Assembly (NCBI GenBank): GCA_964442255.1
Contig: CAYTYC010000003.1
Span: forward strand, 1 to 64,000
Direction of reading: 5' to 3'
Length of the DNA: 64,000 nucleotides
Source of the DNA: an uncultured archaeon
GTDB lineage: Archaea > Iainarchaeota > Iainarchaeia > Iainarchaeales > 1-14-0-10-31-34
Position numbers: made by a program. Of this stretch, positions 45,001 to 51,000 are shown one piece after another; position 1 is the stretch's first letter, and the number at the start of each line of letters is the position of its first letter.

Positions 45001-48000
45001 TCAAATCCGCCTATTTTGGTTGAAGTGTCAACCTCGTGGAAAAAAATCCCTTGCCCTTTAAGCCGGGGAATTATCTGCAGGTCTTCAAGATTGGGGCACA
45101 CTTTTTCCGCGCCAAACTGGGCCGTGCCAAAGGGCTCCGGAAAAATGGTTTTGCCTTCCTTCGCCTTTTTGCCTATTTCGCAAATCCCGCACATTATGCA
45201 TGTTGAACATATTCCGCTTTGGGTTGCATGATCAGGAAATGCAAGCCTTGTGCGGGAGCAAATGTCCTCATTTGAATGCCTTCTGAAGCCCATTGTGCTG
45301 TGGGAACGGTACTTTTCTTCAGCCATATAACGGAATAACAGCGTTAAAAATAAAAAGGAAAAACAAACAGCCCTGTTTTCGGAAAAAAGGGAAAATAAAA
45401 AAACTTTGCGTCAGGAATATTTGGGAAAATGCTTTACAAGAAAGCGGATTTCAGGCAGCTGCTGGGGCAGTTCAGGCTGGCAAATCCCGGGGCGGAGGAA
45501 AAGGAGTTGGTTAAGGCGGAGAAGATGATAAGGAAAAGCCTTATGGAAAGGGAAAGGCGGGACGGAGAAACCGCTTACCAGCATTCCCTGAACACCGCAT
45601 CGCTTGCCGCCCAAATAGGGTTTGACCCTGAAACAATACTTTCTGCACTGCTTCACAACGCCCTGGACCACGGGGAAATTGAAGGCCGGGAAATCGCCTC
45701 AAAATTCAGCCCGGAAATAGCTGCGCTGGTTGAAGAGGTGACAAAAACCAACCAAATTATTTCAAGGAACCGGGAAAATGTTTCCCCGGGAACGTTAAGC
45801 AAGGTTGTTTTAAGCGCGTCCAGGGACATCCGCGCATTGCTTATTCTCCTGTGCGACAAGGTGGAAAACATGCGGTCGCTTGAGGGGCTTTCCGGGGAAG
45901 AACAAGTGAAAAAGGCTTCGCTTGTGTTAAGCCTTTTTGTCCCCATAAGCCACAAGCTGGGGCTAAATGAAATAAAGTGGGAGCTCCAGGATTTGGCGAT
46001 GAAGGTTTTGAATCCTGAAGCATACTTTGAGTTAAAGGAAATGCTCGGGAAAAAAAGGGAGGACCGGGAAAAATGGCTTGCGGAGCTGATAAACGAAATC
46101 AGGGGAATGCTGGAGAAAAAAAAAATCAAGGCAACAATTTACGGGAGAATAAAAAATTTTTACGGAACCCACCAAAAGATGCTGAAAAAAAACAAGCCCA
46201 TTGAAGAGATAAATGACTTGACTGCAGTGAGAATAATCTGCGACACGGAAAAAGACTGCTACTCTGTTCTGGGGGCCCTAAACCAGCACTACACTCCTTT
46301 AAAGGGCGGGTTTGACGACTATATCGTCCGCCCAAAACCCAACGGCTACCGCTCAATCCACTCAGACTTCCGGAAAAAAAACGGGGACGTGTTTGAGGCG
46401 CAGATAAGGACCTGGAAAATGCATGCCGAAGCGGAAGGGGGCGCTGCCGCGCACTGGGCATACAAGGAATACGAAAAGGACAAGGACTTCGACAAAAAGC
46501 TCAGCTGGGCGAAACAGCTGGTCGAATGGGGGAGAAGCTCATTGGAATCAAAGGAATTCCTGAATTCAATCAAACTTGATTTCGGCAGGAAAAAAATCTT
46601 TGTTTTCACCCCAAAGGGAGAGGTTGTGGAGCTTGAGGAATTTTCCACTCCCGTGGATTTTGCTTACTCAATACACAGCGAAATCGGCAACAGGGCACTG
46701 AAAGCGAAAGTGAACGGAATGCTTGTTTCCCTGGACGCCGTGCTGAAAGACGGCGACACCGTTGAAATAATTACATCACAAAAGCAGTCTCCCAGGCGGA
46801 GCTGGCTGCATTTCGTGAAAACAAGCAAGGCAAGGCAAAAGATAAAGTCAAGCCTTGAATTCAGGGGAATAAAAAGAAAAATAAAGGAAAAACTGCCCTC
46901 CACGAAAAGGCAGATAAAAAAAAGGAGGCAGGAATCCATTAAGCTAAGCAAGTGCTGCAACCCTGTCCCGGGGGACGAAATAATCGCATATCACACGACA
47001 AAAAGAAAAATAACAGTGCACAAGAAGGGCTGCCAGAACGTGAAAAAAATCGCCATTAAAAACAGGTTTTTTGAGCTTGACTGGGGGATAGTCGGCAAAA
47101 AGGATTTCAGGGTAGCGGTAAAAGTCAAAGCCCGGGACAGGCCCAGCCTTCTCACCGATTTGCTGAAAGCCATTTCCAAGGGAAACGCCGGGCTTGTTTC
47201 CACGAACGCGAAAGTTGAAAACAATGTTGCGATGTGCGAATTTCTTGTGGAAATAAAGGACCAGCTGCAGCTTGAGTTGCTGCTGAAAAGCCTGGGAAAG
47301 GTAAAAGGCACAATGGAAGTCAAAAAAGCGTAAAAACCCGTTTGCTAACTGTCCTTTATAAAAGGGCCAACGACCGCTGTTTTAGGGCGTGATATGGCTC
47401 TTTTCCGGTTGTTTCCCTGTGGCAAGTAAAAACAAAAGGTTTAAATCCTTGAACTGCGATTTATTGTGGGGAAAAATAAAATGGACAGGGTTAAGACAGG
47501 GATAGCCGGTTTGGACAACCTGATGGAAGGCGGTTTCCCTAAGGGAAGGACTATTTTGGTCAGCGGAGCCTGCGGGACAGGCAAAACCATTTTTTCAATG
47601 CAGTACGTCTACAACGGCGCGGTAAAATACAATGAGCCCGGGGTTTACGTTACTTTGGATGAACGGCCTGACCTCATAAGGCAGGATGTAATGAACTTTG
47701 GCTGGGACGTCAAAAAGCTTGAGGCAAAAAATCAGGTGAACATCATTGACGGAAGCGTTGCAAGGCTCGGCTTTCCCTCCGAAGAAGAATTTGCCATGCC
47801 TGTTACAGGATTTGACTTGGACAAGCTCCTTTTGGAGGTAATGCGGGTCTCCAAAAGAATTGGGGCAAAACGGGTTGTGATTGACTCAATTCCCGCGCTT
47901 GGGTTCAACTTTGAGGACGAAAACGAGGTCAGGAAAGCGGTGCTGAAGCTCAGCTATATGCTAATGAAAAGCGGGGTTACCGCGGTCCTCACCTCCGAGA

Positions 48001-51000
48001 TGAGGGAAGAAGAAAACCGTTTTGGAAAATATGATGTGGAGGAATACATCGTGGACGGGGTTATTGTCCTGCATTACAGCGGAGTCGGGGGAGGGGGAAC
48101 GAACAGGACAATGCACATCAGGAAAATGCGCGCAACAAAGCATTCCGAAGACTTGCATCCCATTTCAATCGGAAAAGGCGGAATGACCATACATAAGCTG
48201 GATGAAGTGTACACAGAAGAATAAGTTCACCTGATTTTTTTGAGTATTTCTGCTGCCTTTTCCTTTCCCAACGCAAAAATAAGCGGCCCCGCTTTCGGGC
48301 CAAATGACTTTCCGGTTAAAGCAGTGTACAGGGCCTCATAAAATTTTTTGGGGGGCAAAGACTTTTTCTTTGCAATCCCCATGAAAGATTTCTGCAGTTC
48401 TTCAGGGCTTTCCGCTGATTCAATTACCTTTGCAGATTCCCTTAAGGCGTCCTTGAGTTCCATGGGCCAGTCTTTTGCTTCATGGGCTTCCCTCTCCTTC
48501 AGGCTGAACCGCGCCTCCTCCGGCGCAAACCCCTTCACCCAATTCCTTGCAAGGGAAACCCTTTCCCTCAAAAGTTCAAGCTGTTCCCCGGATTCCTTTC
48601 CCGTGAGAAAGCCGGCGTCAAGCATTCTCTGCATTGCGTTCTCATCGGAGCCGGAAAGCTGGACGACCATTGCGGCAGTTGAATAGTCAACAGGAACCGG
48701 AAGCAACGGCCGTTTTGTGCGGGAGAAGTCGGTAAGCTTTCCTGAATGGGAGGATTTTTTTTCCACGGCCTCCGCCAGGGCTCTGTCAAGCTCAAGCTCC
48801 ATTCCCGGCACATCATTCCAGGAAAAGCTTCTTGCCCGGTTTATGCGCTTCATGAAAAGCATTTTAAGGGTCTCAGGCCTTGAAACGGAAAGCCATTGCT
48901 GTGGGTAGACAACATTACCCAATGATGCGCTCATTTTGACCCCGTCAACCATGAGGTGCTCGTAAAAAATCGGTTCAGGGGAGGGAAAGGAAAGGATTTT
49001 TTCGCATATCCCGGCATTAACCCAAAAAGCCGAGTTTTTGGCTTCGTATTCTTTTCCCGCGCCCTCGCTGCACACCCCCCATTTTTTCCACTGCGCAGCC
49101 CACTCGCTTTTCCACACAAGCTTTCCGTCTGGATTTGAAAGCGATGACTTTCCTTCGTGCCCGCAGCCCTTTGCCGTGAATTTCTCAAAGGAGTAATCCC
49201 TGCACGAATAATGAATGGTTTTTCCGTCAACCTCCTCAACCACTGTTGTCTGCATGTTTCCGCAGGAATCGCAGATAGGCTTCCAGGGGCTCCAGTTTTC
49301 CCCCATCCTTGCCCCGGTTGTTTCCTCAATTATTTTCTTTACCTTCCCCGTGTTTTCAATTATTTCTTTTATCAGGGAATTGAAAGAGCCTTTCCGGTAT
49401 TCTTCCCTCATTGAAAATTTTTTAGGAAAAAACTCAAGGAATTTTTCAGCCGAAGAAAAAAAGCCGTCAAGGAAATGCTCGGCATAGCTTTTGTGGCACC
49501 CTTCGGGGTCGGGGACATCCGATACCGGGAACCCAATGAATTGCGAGAATTTTTTCGGCACTCCTTTAGGGATTTTCCTTAAGGGATCCATGTCTTCGGT
49601 TACGTAAATGAATTCTGCGGGAAATCCTTTTTCTTTGAGCGCACGGTAAACAGCCTCACCCCGGAGAATGTCGCTCAGCCTGCCAATGTGCAGGACCCCG
49701 GAAAGCGAAGAACTTGATTTCACTGACCAGCTTTTTTGTTCCGGAATTTTTTTTTTGAGGAAACGGAATCTTTTTCTTGAGCGCACATTTCCGGCAATTT
49801 TTTGCGCCCAAAAGGAGTTTTTTTCACCCATTTAAGCCCCTACTCGTATTCAATTGTCGCGGGGGGCTTTTGGGAGATGTCGTACAAAACCCTGTTAACC
49901 CCCCTGACCTCGTTTATTATCCTGCTTGAAACCCTTTCAAGGAATCCGTGGGGAAGCTTTGCCCAATCCGCTGTCATCGCGTCCCTGGAGGTTACTGCGC
50001 GAAGGGAAACAATGTATTCGTATGTCCTGGAGTCGCCCATTACCCCCACGCTTTTTGCGGGGAGGAGCGCGGCAAGCGCCTGCCAAACGCAGTCATAGTA
50101 AGCGGATTTTTCAAGCTCCTCAATGAATATGGAGTCCGCTTCCCTTAAAATCTCAATTTTTTTCCTGTCCACCGGGCCCAAAACCCTCACCCCCAAGCCC
50201 GGGCCAGGGAAAGGGTGGCGGGAAAGGGCTTTACGCGGAAGACCGAGAAGTTTTCCTATTTCCCTTACCTCGTCCTTGTAGAAGTCTTTCAGGGGCTCAA
50301 CCAGCTCAAAGCGCATTCCCTTTGGAAGGACAACGTTGTGGTGGGATTTAATGCGGGAAGCCTTTGGGTTTGGGGACGCCGACTCAATCCTGTCCGGATA
50401 AATTGTGCCCTGCCCGAGGAGAGGGATTTTTTCCCCTGCTTTTTCAAGTTGTTTTGCCTTGGACTCAAATTCCTCAATAAAAGTGCGGCCGATTATTTTT
50501 CTCTTTTTTTCGGGGTCGAAAACCCTCTTCAGCCTGCGGAGGAAATTCTTTTCCGCATCAACCACATAAAGCCTGAAGCCAAGTTTTTTGTACAATGCTT
50601 TTATGTAAATGGCCTCGTTTTTTCTCATCAGGCCGTTGTCCACGAAAACGCAGAACAACTTTTTGGGCCTGGCTTTCTTGAGCATGGCCGCGGCAACAAG
50701 CGAATCAACCCCGCCTGAAACCCCGAGCAAAACTTTTTTGCCTTTGACTTCCTCGCTTAATTTGGACTGGAGGATGGAAAATTGTTCCCTGAGGCGCCAG
50801 TTTTTTTTCGCCCCGCACACCCCGAACACAAAGTTTTTCAGCATCCTGTTCCCCCCTAAAGTGTGCTGAACCTCTGGATGGAATTGAATTGAAAAAATTT
50901 TTTTTCTCCTGACTTCAAACCCCGCATTCCTGCAGTTGTCTGTGGAGGCAACGCGTTTTGAGTTAGGGGGAAGCCTGTTCACTGTGTCGCGGTGGGAAAG

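Follow-up and report, generated by a model that had tools for sequence, protein, structure and literature searches.

The 64,000-nucleotide stretch of DNA analyzed here (the window) encodes a long RelA/SpoT homologue, RSH-A, within a conserved block that runs TIM, RSH-A > KaiC, LysRS. A paralogue, RSH-B, lies on a second contig, C17, and PF04607 and PF13328 each match exactly twice in the whole genome. The genes and features are listed with their supporting evidence.

42287..42562, + strand: archaeal SRP RNA, 3 kb upstream of RSH-A (Rfam RF01857, 150.5 bits; gathering score 96.5)
43345..44016, - strand: triosephosphate isomerase, TIM (PF00121)
45429..47333, + strand: RSH-A, 634-aa long RelA/SpoT homologue (ORF, Pfam, NCBIfam, phmmer versus PDB, motif table)
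45528..45965, + strand: degenerate (pseudo) HD hydrolase domain, RSH-A residues 34-179 (Pfam, motif alignment)
46143..46475, + strand: synthetase (RelA_SpoT) domain, residues 239-349 (Pfam, motif alignment)
46596..46775, + strand: TGS domain, residues 390-449, with conserved histidine H416 (Pfam, orthologue alignment)
46953..47033, + strand: zinc-finger (ZFD/RIS) motif, C509, C510 .. H531 .. C535 (alignment, orthologue conservation)
47100..47324, + strand: ACT_4 (RRM-like) C-terminal domain, residues 558-632 (Pfam)
47334..47480, + strand: 147-nt spacer between RSH-A and the KaiC-like gene (sequence read)
47466..48224, + strand, likely start 47481: single-domain KaiC-like ATPase, PH0186/UPF0273 type, 252-aa ORF (PF06745, 250 bits)
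48227..49831, - strand: class I (archaeal-type) lysyl-tRNA synthetase, LysRS, convergent with KaiC (PF01921, 281 bits)
Contig C17, 13221-14918 (835-2532 of the excerpt L002, - strand there): RSH-B, 565-aa long RelA/SpoT paralogue (PF04607, PF13328)

The LysRS also matched TIGR00467 lysS_arch at 272 bits (cut-off 148). From this archaeal-type enzyme and the SRP RNA we concluded that the contig is archaeal, and the host of both RSHs is a 'Candidatus Iainarchaeum'-type DPANN archaeon.

Complementary motifs in the two paralogues

RSH-A scored 89, 119, 82, and 49 bits against HD_4, RelA_SpoT, TGS, and ACT_4 in Pfam and 549 bits against NCBIfam TIGR00691 spoT_relA (cut-off 499), and its best PDB matches by phmmer were M. 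smegmatis-type RelA (5e-118) and B. subtilis Rel (6e-115). When RSH-A was aligned to solved bacterial Rel/RelA proteins and placed in a 72-sequence MAFFT alignment, its hydrolase motifs were found to be changed (HD to HN, ED to DH, DRLHN to DKVEN), and three of the four residues that we take to be metal ligands (H, H, D) are retained. The same alignments showed that GRIK, YRSIH, EAQIRT, HWAYK, and CCNPVPGD..H..C are kept. In the synthetase domain R240, K242, D263, Y307, H311, E323, Q325, R327, and HWAYK are all present and invariant in 19 orthologues; every residue invariant across these orthologues falls within the synthetase (SYNTH), TGS, or zinc-finger (ZFD) domain, and none within HD. H416 aligns with B. 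subtilis Rel H420 and E. coli RelA H432, the TGS histidine described as sensing tRNA-CCA (PMC7797070).

RSH-B retains intact hydrolase motifs (H..HP, LHDVLEDT, D..HN), reads LKIYIRS at the ExQIRT position, and is devoid of HWxYK and the zinc finger. A preliminary description of these genes had read the motifs in this way and had also scored the G-loop as lost, a point that needs amending: its Arg and Lys (REKT) remain in this genome, as does the Mg-binding Asp, and the Gly alone is gone. A K-x-Y-I motif is conserved in B-type proteins alongside YxSxH and the Mg-binding Asp, so their SYNTH domain presumably has some function.

These differences extend across the order. The census alignment comprised 33 A-type, 21 B-type, 6 f10-type, 3 f2-type, and 1 f6-type proteins, together with 8 bacterial references. 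HDxxED occurs in none of the 33 A-type and all 21 B-type proteins, and D..HN in 2/33 and 21/21, respectively. ExQIRT keeps both its catalytic Glu and its catalytic Gln in 33/33 A-type proteins; B-type proteins have Lys (20/21) or Arg (1/21) in place of Glu and mostly Tyr in place of Gln (18/21). HWxYK is found in 32/33 A-type and 0/21 B-type proteins, and the CC..H..C zinc finger in 33/33 and 0/21. The charge motif is ExDD in 20 of 31 A-type proteins and xxDD in 25 of 31 (GFDD, not EFDD, in the window's RSH-A), xFDD in 6/6 f10-type proteins, and the basic KxKD in 20 of 21 B-type proteins. All five bacterial Rel/SpoT references with intact HDxxED have RxKD or RxRD, and Salmonella RelA has EFDD, matching the acidic ExDD of most A-type proteins. 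An acidic ExDD is reported as typical of monofunctional RelA (PMC2666561). The tRNA-CCA histidine of TGS is present in 31/31 A-type, 6/6 f10-type, and 1/21 B-type proteins. Mean within-class identity is 26% in HD, 46% in SYNTH, and 52% in ZFD for A-type proteins, and 46% in HD and 37% in SYNTH for B-type proteins. Judged by these motifs, the two Iainarchaeota copies are shown to have decayed in complementary ways. The division into a (p)ppGpp maker and a breaker that had been proposed from the two proteins holds at the motif level order-wide (33 A, 21 B), and two markers not used in that proposal, ExDD versus KxKD and the TGS histidine, agree with it.

Distribution, gene context, and ancestry

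Of 121 genomes of the order, 100 contain a PF04607 match, as do 162 of the 215 genomes of the phylum, a broader distribution than the sample behind the preliminary description had shown. An earlier study (Li et al. 2021, PMC8407392) had reported RelA/SpoT in 69% of Diapherotrites and predicted acquisition from Bacteria, so that the textbook picture of Archaea without long RSHs, from which the preliminary description started, is outdated. Both types occur together in 55/121 genomes of the order, and we found no B-type without an A-type, which accompanies it in 55/55 genomes. The two-enzyme system is not universal: in approximately 45 of the 100 RSH-positive genomes, including the closed G016 and the near-closed G015, G055, and G039, the A-type stands alone. 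Such genomes would make alarmone without any RSH hydrolase, contrary to the rule that Atkinson 2011 described for bacteria.

Both RSH genes lie among aminoacyl-tRNA synthetase genes. TIM adjoins or is near RSH-A in 13 of 27 related loci examined. RSH-B lies downstream of ArgRS, facing LeuRS or AlaRS; ArgRS is directly upstream on the same strand in 17 of 20 other genomes and in this one (median gap, ∼50 nt). As a control, the flanks covered at 80 metagenome loci with bacterial-type Rel contained KaiC, ArgRS, or class I LysRS in none (0/80). Placement among synthetase genes fits a role of RSH-A and RSH-B in reporting tRNA charging. It is very improbable that the pair is an artefact of bacterial contamination of the bin or a relic of decaying pseudo-enzymes without an alarmone role. 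RSHs are otherwise bacterial, and one domain per copy is visibly decaying, but the contig of RSH-A carries archaeal SRP RNA and archaeal-type LysRS, 100/121 genomes of the order, among them several that are closed or nearly so, have the gene, and its reading frames are unbroken except in a few assemblies. The catalytic residues of the retained domains are, moreover, invariant among proteins merely 33 to 45% identical, the range of RSH-A orthologues across the order.

To place the paralogues we used an IQ-TREE LG+G4 tree of 63 rows, 28 of them bacterial and including Salmonella RelA, Acinetobacter RelA, and E. coli SpoT; long-branch effects are possible under LG+G4. Single branches separate A + f10 (support, 99), B (100), a Nano group that includes one row named 'Nanoarchaeota archaeon' (98), a W group (100), and the bacteria (98). 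All 28 bacterial rows fall beyond a branch with 98% SH-aLRT support, with A, B, and the remaining short types on its near side. The Nano group appears bifunctional because it retains HDxxED in 4/5 proteins (one reads LHDVLEN), the synthetase motifs, and an RxKD or KxKD charge motif; the W group has lost the HD motifs, yet without ExDD alongside. The spacing from the TGS histidine to ZFD is 90 to 108 residues in A + f10, 104 to 114 in Nano, and 107 to 108 in W, compared to a median of 182 in 98 long proteins and 165 to 194 in the 8 bacterial references. Approximately 80 to 90 residues of the helical domain are thus missing in A, Nano, and W relative to the bacterial factors, and the helical domain is missing from the B-type too. 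Given this common deletion and the position of the short DPANN RSHs apart from all 28 bacterial rows, the split is independent of the proteobacterial RelA/SpoT duplication, as was first suggested from the motifs.

The data are compatible with a duplication within Iainarchaeota. The alternative, in which A and B were acquired separately from bacteria or other DPANN/CPR organisms with no duplication within the lineage, we regard as unlikely. It would account for an identity of only ∼30% between RSH-A and RSH-B, for scores against B. subtilis Rel (388 and 311 bits by phmmer) that exceed the score of one copy against the other (224 to 235 bits by BLASTP, a rough comparison between different programs), for the closest matches of RSH-B outside the order being Clostridia-type Rel (35 to 40% identity), and for the polytomy formed by A, B, Nano, and (W + bacteria). 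The low identity is, however, also explained by asymmetric decay, which affected different domains in the two copies, and A, B, Nano, and W all fall on the same side of the 98% branch, opposite the bacteria. Forcing A and B into one clade costs no likelihood (not rejected by the AU test, p = 0.50), and B shares with A the absence of the helical domain.

The KaiC-like neighbour and the possible activation of RSH-A

The KaiC-like ATPase matches PDB 2zts (PH0186) at 219 bits, and its start was set at 47481 because orthologues open with M-x-R-[IV]-K-T-G. The preliminary description took it for a regulator particular to this lineage, encoded in one operon with RSH-A. A functional partnership, whether by co-transcription or as a binding regulator or scaffold, would suit the arrangement of the genes: of 89 genomes having both genes, 44 place KaiC directly 3' of RSH-A in the same orientation, it lies ≤8 kb downstream in 75 of 76 same-contig cases, spacers read from coordinates are mostly 40 to 70 nt (range, 40 to 290), and KaiC is absent near the 80 bacterial-type Rel genes. 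KaiC-like ATPases have also reportedly been proposed as archaeal signalling hubs. We nevertheless consider such a partnership improbable, since the family is spread over archaeal phyla (nearest atlas clusters: Bathyarchaeota, Thermoplasmatota, Methanobacteriota, and Thermoproteota) and persists where the RSH does not. In family f30, KaiC orthologues occur in 10/10 genomes and PF04607 in 0/10, with KaiC identity to the window's copy no lower (61 to 65%); across the order KaiC is 60 to 77% identical, compared to 33 to 45% for RSH-A. LysRS (class I or II) adjoins KaiC in 18 of 28 loci, the window included, which are all 18 with the other neighbour identified, and it does so even where RSH is absent. 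In several families RSH-A and KaiC are separated by an ABC-transporter/CARDB cassette that runs in the opposite direction, the KaiC gene is inverted in some f10 genomes, and TIM is kept on the opposite flank of RSH-A, so that the entire block is syntenic. In the window, T-runs in the spacer are followed by a TATA-like TTTAAAT (47441-47447) ∼35 nt 5' of the ATG at 47481, and the KaiC-like gene may have its own archaeal promoter. The likeliest reading is therefore that the KaiC-like ATPase is a conserved neighbour whose tie is to LysRS, and that it does not serve as a dedicated regulator of the RSH.

Coupling of RSH-A to the ribosome is only inferred, from its retained TGS histidine, zinc finger, and ACT domain. 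ZFD and ACT contact the ribosome in bacterial structures. With most of the helical domain absent, docking on the archaeal ribosome is uncertain, and RSH-A could instead be unable to dock like bacterial RelA and work away from the ribosome, switched by free deacylated tRNA, small molecules at ACT, or a protein partner, a possibility that we take seriously but do not favour. Consistent with it, every A, Nano, and W protein lacks about 80 to 90 residues in the interval from TGS to ZFD, and a Pfam search found no RelA_AH_RIS domain in RSH-A, unlike the bacterial Rel matches, in which PF19296 is present. There is bacterial precedent as well: an isolated TGS-helical fragment of B. subtilis Rel is reported to bind deacylated tRNA unaided (PMC7797070), and protein factors such as DarB to activate Rel away from the ribosome (PMC9848473). 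Strong constraint on the ribosome-contacting domains argues against it, in that none of the zinc ligands varies among the 19 orthologues, ZFD identity is 52%, and the TGS histidine is invariant.

Taken together, RSH-A is probably a RelA-like, synthetase-only enzyme and RSH-B a SpoT-like, hydrolase-only one, both derived from a short-tailed DPANN Rel. That ancestor, of bacterial ancestry and circulating in DPANN, would have been bifunctional by its motifs and already without most of the helical domain. The sequences show that the A-type lost HDxxED and gained an acidic ExDD while keeping the TGS histidine, zinc finger, and ACT; in the B-type the hydrolase site survives, but the Glu and Gln of the synthetase, the G-loop (in this genome Gly only), the zinc finger, and the TGS histidine are gone. 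RSH-A may make (p)ppGpp from ATP and GTP/GDP when it meets deacylated tRNA, whether at the archaeal ribosome or away from it, and RSH-B may remove it constitutively or under other controls. We found no published description of this paralogue split or of its aminoacyl-tRNA synthetase contexts. A tiny DPANN archaeon carries a bacterial-type alarmone pair, one member apparently only a maker of (p)ppGpp and the other only a breaker, both located among tRNA-charging genes, so that a bacterial-style starvation signal in Archaea becomes testable.

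Complementary motifs in two RSH paralogs

The genome that carries the window (1.28 Mb in 51 contigs, 93.8% complete) contains exactly two RelA_SpoT matches and two HD_4 matches. One pair belongs to RSH-A, the long RelA/SpoT homolog (RSH) of the window, and the other to RSH-B, a 565-aa paralog on contig C17. RSH-A and the genes that bear on its identity and context are as follows.

42287-42562: archaeal SRP RNA
45429-47333, + strand: RSH-A, an open frame of 634 aa
47466-48224, + strand: KaiC-like ATPase of 252 aa (PF06745, 250 bits against a cut-off of 26.6)
48227-49831, converging on the ATPase gene: archaeal-type class I lysyl-tRNA synthetase (LysRS)

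RSH-A comprises HD_4, RelA_SpoT, TGS, and ACT_4 domains (Pfam), and its score of 549 bits against TIGR00691, the NCBI RelA/SpoT subfamily (cut-off, 499), places it among the long RSHs. Among solved proteins, it comes closest to an actinobacterial RelA (5e-118) and Bacillus subtilis Rel (6e-115). A Pfam search of RSH-A gave no match to PF19296 (RelA_AH_RIS) at an E value of 0.01 or below, and the combination of a helical (AH) domain with a RIS or zinc-finger domain (RIS/ZFD) that marks long RSHs was not found; RSH-A keeps a CC..H..C zinc finger. A search of genome contigs with RSH-A returned a single locus, L083, from a 'Candidatus Iainarchaeum archaeon' record. Together with this nearest named relative, the SRP RNA and the archaeal-type class I LysRS indicate that the contig is archaeal, and the presence of these two genes on the same contig led us to reject bacterial contamination of the bin. 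Elsewhere in the window, two Rfam tRNA matches span 108 nt (57148-57255, - strand) and 93 nt (60270-60362, + strand) against a model of 71 positions, which suggests intron-containing archaeal tRNA genes.

The preliminary description had read complementary motif losses from the two proteins, with RSH-A lacking a hydrolase motif and RSH-B lacking synthetase residues and the zinc finger. We aligned RSH genes from related genomes (33 of the RSH-A type and 21 of the RSH-B type, hereafter A-type and B-type) with eight named bacterial Rel, RelA, and SpoT proteins. Both the complementary pattern and the difference in the zinc finger were borne out across the two classes, as tabulated below.

Conservation of catalytic and zinc-finger motifs in A-type and B-type RSHs
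HDxxED: A-type, 0/33; B-type, 21/21
D..HN: A-type, 2/33; B-type, 21/21
Glu and Gln of ExQIRT: A-type, 33/33; B-type, 0/21
Replacements at ExQIRT in B-type: Glu to Lys in 20/21 and to Arg in 1/21; Gln lost in 21/21, with Tyr in 18
HWxYK: A-type, 32/33; B-type, 0/21
CC..H..C zinc finger: A-type, 33/33; B-type, 0/21

With HDxxED gone and the synthetase motifs intact, the A-type proteins fit the RelA-type [hS] pattern. All 21 B-type proteins, in turn, retain the metal and catalytic motifs of the hydrolase domain (H..HP, HDxxED, and D..HN), with HD_4 scores of 109 to 162 bits, while their synthetase domain has lost the G-loop, R269, and HWxYK and retains the Mg-binding Asp (21/21) and YxSxH. The earlier statement that RSH-B has no GRxK was right only in part, in that its REKT retains the Arg and the Lys. 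These motifs suggest that the B-type synthetase is probably inactive. RSH-B otherwise has the makeup of this protein family: PF04607 (77.9 bits) and PF13328 (128.6 bits) fall within one 580-aa frame, its alignment to B. subtilis Rel spans residues 25 to 505, and two close relatives, P0151 and P0152, have HD_4, RelA_SpoT, TGS, and ACT_4 in precomputed Pfam lists.

Sequence conservation within each class followed the same division. Mean identity among A-type proteins was 26% in the hydrolase domain and 46% in the synthetase domain, and among B-type proteins the pattern was the opposite (46% and 37%, respectively). The invariant residues of 19 A-type orthologs all lie in the synthetase domain, the TGS domain, or the zinc finger, and none lies in the hydrolase domain. 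Two A-type genes are interrupted by in-frame stops, one TGA in G074:C36:11084-12031 and three TAA in G059:C102:14657-15464; either decay into pseudogenes or errors of assembly could account for the stops.

Two further positions mostly differ between the classes. According to Sajish et al. (PMC2666561), a charge motif reads ExDD in monofunctional and RxKD in bifunctional RSHs. Among 31 A-type proteins the motif is ExDD in 20 and xxDD in 25 (GFDD in RSH-A itself), and three read QFKD, KFSD, and KFTD; it is KxKD in 20 of the 21 B-type proteins. The five bacterial Rel and SpoT references with an intact HDxxED read RxKD or RxRD, and Salmonella RelA reads EFDD. The idea that loss of the hydrolase motif is always paired with ExDD was rejected, however, since the W group, a set of short RSHs, breaks the rule: where the hydrolase motifs are decaying, its members have a motif that is basic or neutral, and a member whose domain is intact carries EFDD. 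The second position is the TGS histidine (H420 in B. subtilis, H432 in Escherichia coli RelA), described as stacking on the CCA end of deacylated tRNA (PMC7797070). It is kept in 31/31 A-type, 6/6 f10-type, and 3/3 f2-type proteins (the last two from families f10 and f2 of the order) and in 1/21 B-type proteins, which implies that the synthetase-like copy also retains the tRNA sensor and that the hydrolase-like copy is without it. Judged on sequence, a division of labor between an alarmone maker and an alarmone breaker would best explain the A/B pair, and we consider this reading likely; the ribosome coupling put forward in the preliminary description is a possibility.

Distribution and origin of the paralogs

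PF04607 was present in 100 of 121 genomes of the order, 42 of its 51 high-quality genomes, and 162 of 215 genomes of the phylum. Calling a B-type gene wherever HD_4 scored at least 109 bits at a site other than the A gene, we found B-type genes in 55 of the 121 genomes, all of which also had an A-type match. A-type genes occurred alone throughout families f10, f16, f13, f15, f19, f26, and f31. The A-only genomes include the closed G016 (G016:C1; L019, L095; 99% complete) and the near-closed G015 (L073), G055 (L057), and G039 (L058); no second HD_4 match was found in these closed and near-closed genomes, so that their sole RSH is one with a dead hydrolase domain. Family f30 had no PF04607 match in any of its 10 genomes. 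The proposal of a conserved two-enzyme system thus holds for the 55 genomes with both genes and fails for the families that have the A-type alone. We also considered f10 as a keeper of a bifunctional ancestor and rejected it, as the single f10 copy has a dead hydrolase domain.

Other RelA_SpoT proteins were seen in the order. A third kind, of 360 to 400 aa (L064:2449-3651, L067:2526-3608, and L069:1238-2326, also L065, L066, and L068), carries no more of the synthetase domain than its first 99 positions, plus a C-terminal part of ~170 aa. Genome G025 encodes a 206-aa protein resembling a small alarmone synthetase (L070:2212-2829). The RSH of family f2 is truncated to 463 aa (L061:2818-4206 in G002; L062, L063) and forms a very long branch; its hydrolase region is unrecognizable, its synthetase is intact, its TGS histidine is kept, and the zinc finger and the ACT domain are both absent.

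A search of 1.84 billion representatives revealed two length classes of RSH, one of about 600 to 660 aa that matched in one stretch and one of about 710 to 790 aa that matched in two. The short class includes the Nano group of other DPANN archaea, five proteins of which only one bears an organism name (P0118, 'Nanoarchaeota archaeon'). Nano proteins share with A- and B-type proteins the nonbacterial side of the tree and, like A-type proteins, have a short spacing between the TGS domain and the zinc finger; they differ in keeping HDxxED, the synthetase motifs, and the basic RxKD, and so look bifunctional. Short, bifunctional-looking RSHs of this type probably represent the ancestral state.

We placed these groups in an IQ-TREE phylogeny (LG+G4, 63 rows) in which the bacterial rows had been picked from among the best matches to A and B. 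Nineteen of 82 rows had been dropped (4 A, 3 B, 1 f10, 1 W, and 10 bacterial), and three f2 sequences and one f6 sequence were excluded from the IQ-TREE sets for their very long FastTree branches. Support was 99 for A with the f10-type, 100 for B, 98 for Nano, 100 for W, and 98 for the 28 bacterial rows. The tree gives no supported branching order among A, B, Nano, and W plus bacteria, and constraining A and B together carried no likelihood cost (p-AU, 0.50). The branch with 98% support separates A from the proteobacterial RelA clade, and RSH-A, lying outside the side of the tree that holds Salmonella and Acinetobacter RelA, is not orthologous to it. Because the proteobacterial RelA and SpoT references both fall inside the bacterial side, the A/B split is independent of the one in Proteobacteria, as the preliminary description had suggested.

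A structural feature fits the tree. Between the TGS histidine and the zinc finger, A and f10-type proteins have 90 to 108 residues, Nano proteins 104 to 114, and W proteins 107 to 108; the median for 98 long proteins is 182, and the eight bacterial references have 165 to 194. The spacing in A falls about 90 residues short of that in bacteria. A, Nano, and W therefore lack most of the helical domain; RSH-B has neither the helical region nor the zinc finger. Three RSHs of 560 to 585 aa (P0209, P0191, and P0202) have no zinc finger and have bifunctional-looking motifs. They fall on the bacterial side, and one bears the name 'Candidatus Sungiibacteriota bacterium', a member of the CPR, implying that the tail was also shortened in ultrasmall bacteria.

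Gene neighborhoods of RSH-A and RSH-B

That a single-domain KaiC-like ATPase follows RSH-A on the same strand, as previously noted, was confirmed by the PF06745 match and the length of the protein. It has a Walker A motif (GACGTGKT) and a DE motif, both read by eye, and is of the PH0186/UPF0273 type, which occurs in several archaeal phyla; PH0186 itself (PDB 2zts) matches it over its full length at 219 bits. It is not the two-domain clock KaiC of cyanobacteria: scores against the circadian models TIGR02655 and PRK09302 were 162 (against 546) and 210 (against 408), respectively, and its conserved neighbor here is LysRS.

The further suggestion that this ATPase is a dedicated regulator of RSH-A fared less well. 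In its favor, the ATPase gene lies immediately downstream of RSH-A on the same strand in 44 of the 89 genomes that have both genes, where the two may form an operon. In the other 45, it lies 1.7 to 3.7 kb away in 14 (inverted in 4 of these), 3.7 to 8 kb away in 17, 22 kb away in 1, and on another contig in 13. The intervening genes, which lie on the opposite strand, encode a CARDB protein and a MacB/FtsX ABC-transporter cassette. Even in the window, 147 nt separate RSH-A from the likely ATPase start at 47481, a spacer with T-runs and a TATA-like TTTAAAT ~35 nt upstream of that start. Orthologue-level matches to the ATPase (48 to 77% identity) occur in 104 of 121 genomes, including all 10 genomes of the RSH-less family f30. 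Given the intervening genes in relatives, the presence of the ATPase in f30, and its linkage to LysRS, a role as dedicated RSH-A regulator is unlikely. In several families, the full cassette combines two MacB/FtsX permeases and an ABC ATPase with a CARDB surface protein (L095:7560-11784, L097, L096, L098, L072; L056:4219-5442), and in f10 only the CARDB protein is seen. The f2 genomes have no orthologue-level match to the KaiC-like ATPase.

The firmest link of the ATPase is to LysRS, not to the RSH. LysRS adjoins it or stands one gene off in 18 of 28 loci, the window included; in the remaining 10, LysRS was not found beside the ATPase or the flank was missing on that side. The ATPase-LysRS loci include window 47466-49831, L084, L099-L103, L083, L085-L088, L093, L095, L098, and L073. 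The enzyme is class I (lysS_arch) in the window and nine related loci and class II (lysS_bact) in G001, G008, and four f30 loci, often directly downstream on the same strand, two of the f30 loci being assigned by size and position only. No class II LysRS scored above cut-off in the genome of the window, and no class I LysRS did so in G001, G030, G008, G098, or G090; the two classes are mutually exclusive in the genomes tested. This looks like an in situ swap of one LysRS class for the other beside a conserved ATPase, and an adjacency that survives such a swap is a separate lead on the function of the ATPase family. On its other side, RSH-A has triosephosphate isomerase (TIM) as a conserved neighbor in 13 of 27 loci, so that the conserved unit is a block consisting of TIM, RSH-A followed by the KaiC-like ATPase, and LysRS. 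In most related loci TIM directly adjoins RSH-A, unlike in the window, where a 437-aa gene resembling FMN-dependent dehydrogenases and glutamate synthases (44013-45326, - strand) lies between the two.

RSH-B also has an aminoacyl-tRNA synthetase (aaRS) context (contig C17, 13221-16738, L002, in the genome of the window; L035-L054 elsewhere). In this genome and in 17 of 20 others, ArgRS lies directly upstream in the same orientation, with a median spacer of ~50 nt. As exceptions, one genome has ArgRS downstream of RSH-B and two have a Lyase_1 (argininosuccinate-lyase-like) gene in its place. The convergent gene 3' of RSH-B is LeuRS or a LeuRS-like class I synthetase (5 scanned) and is AlaRS in the genome of the window and in L051. 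As a control, a metagenome search with the Nano alignment gave 80 loci, all bacterial-type, whose frames, where complete, were at least 709 aa long. Within the available flanks, neither the KaiC-like ATPase nor ArgRS nor class I LysRS was found at any of these 80 bacterial-type Rel loci, and class II aaRS-like matches (24 to 43% identity) were found at 6. The control argues that the aaRS contexts of the RSHs were built within the archaeal lineage.

Known systems and implications

RSH-A is most readily compared with the monofunctional [hS] RelA of the E. coli type, found in Beta- and Gammaproteobacteria. Both have the HD-SYNTH-TGS-ZFD-ACT order with a dead hydrolase domain and an intact synthetase, and RelA and A-type proteins share the TGS histidine, the zinc-finger cysteines, and, in 20 of 31 A-type proteins, an acidic ExDD motif. 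Unlike RelA, RSH-A is ~100 residues shorter, most of the helical domain being missing, belongs to an archaeon with an archaeal ribosome, and has GFDD rather than EFDD. The SpoT of Acinetobacter baumannii is monofunctional, with hydrolase activity only. RSH-B resembles this SpoT (PDB 7qpr, matched by both A and B searches) in its intact hydrolase domain, its synthetase-like domain without catalytic residues, and its synthetase-only paralog. It differs in that it is not an ortholog, has 565 aa with no zinc finger and no helical domain, has lost the TGS histidine that E. coli SpoT keeps, and shows Glu-to-Lys and Gln-to-Tyr replacements conserved across the B class. Both paralogs find their best-scoring solved relatives in the bifunctional Rel proteins of Firmicutes and Actinobacteria (B. 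subtilis, 6yxa; Streptococcus equisimilis, 1vj7), at 5.6e-115 and 1.4e-91. In its retained domain, each paralog has the catalytic residues of bifunctional Rel, which combines both activities and a full helical domain in one protein; here the activities appear to be split over two genes.

Archaea are described as lacking long RSHs in the text of Atkinson 2011 (PMC3153485) covered here, which agrees with what the preliminary description had stated as textbook knowledge. RelA/SpoT in DPANN archaea had, however, already been published: Li 2021 (PMC8407392) reported it in 69.0% of Diapherotrites, 41.7% of Woesearchaeota, 21.3% of Pacearchaeota, and 19.0% of Nanoarchaeota and predicted its acquisition from Bacteria. 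The presence of the family in DPANN is therefore already known. According to the covered text of PMC8646023, (p)ppGpp production has not been demonstrated in any archaeon. In the literature covered, we found no account of the two-paralog split, the ExDD convergence, or the aaRS and KaiC contexts; the RelA/SpoT tree in Fig. S34 of Li 2021 and the supplementary tables by Jimmy et al. (bioRxiv 575399), both outside that coverage, may already contain the two clades and archaeal long RSHs, respectively. Both the independent split of RelA/SpoT type and the wiring to aaRS genes appear to be new.

A whole archaeal phylum retains a long RSH under strong purifying selection, and about half of its genomes appear to divide the two activities between two genes, an arrangement like that of E. 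coli but of independent origin. The A/B pair is thereby a natural replicate of RelA/SpoT subfunctionalization that could help to ask which changes are necessary, candidates being the loss of HDxxED, the ExDD motif, and the disappearance of the TGS histidine from the hydrolase copy. As a clonable pair, it is a tool for asking whether a bacterial stringent factor reads the archaeal ribosome or tRNA. The aaRS gene context of the RSHs points to what is sensed, and the A-only lineages, with no RSH hydrolase, pose the question of how the signal is removed. Taken jointly, these elements could describe an alarmone-based stringent response in Iainarchaeota, re-engineered within Archaea from a bacterial part. 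A RelA-like synthetase that senses tRNA and a SpoT-like hydrolase that is blind to it would have split independently of Proteobacteria, with a convergent ExDD; the system would be wired to aaRS genes (ArgRS to RSH-B; RSH-A to the PH0186-type KaiC to LysRS), and the KaiC-like ATPase would link lysyl-tRNA charging to alarmone synthesis. We regard this joint reading, in all its parts at once, as distinctly improbable. If true, it would give the first (p)ppGpp signaling system in Archaea, for a trait generally regarded as bacterial and plastid, and the first function for the widespread archaeal PH0186 family.
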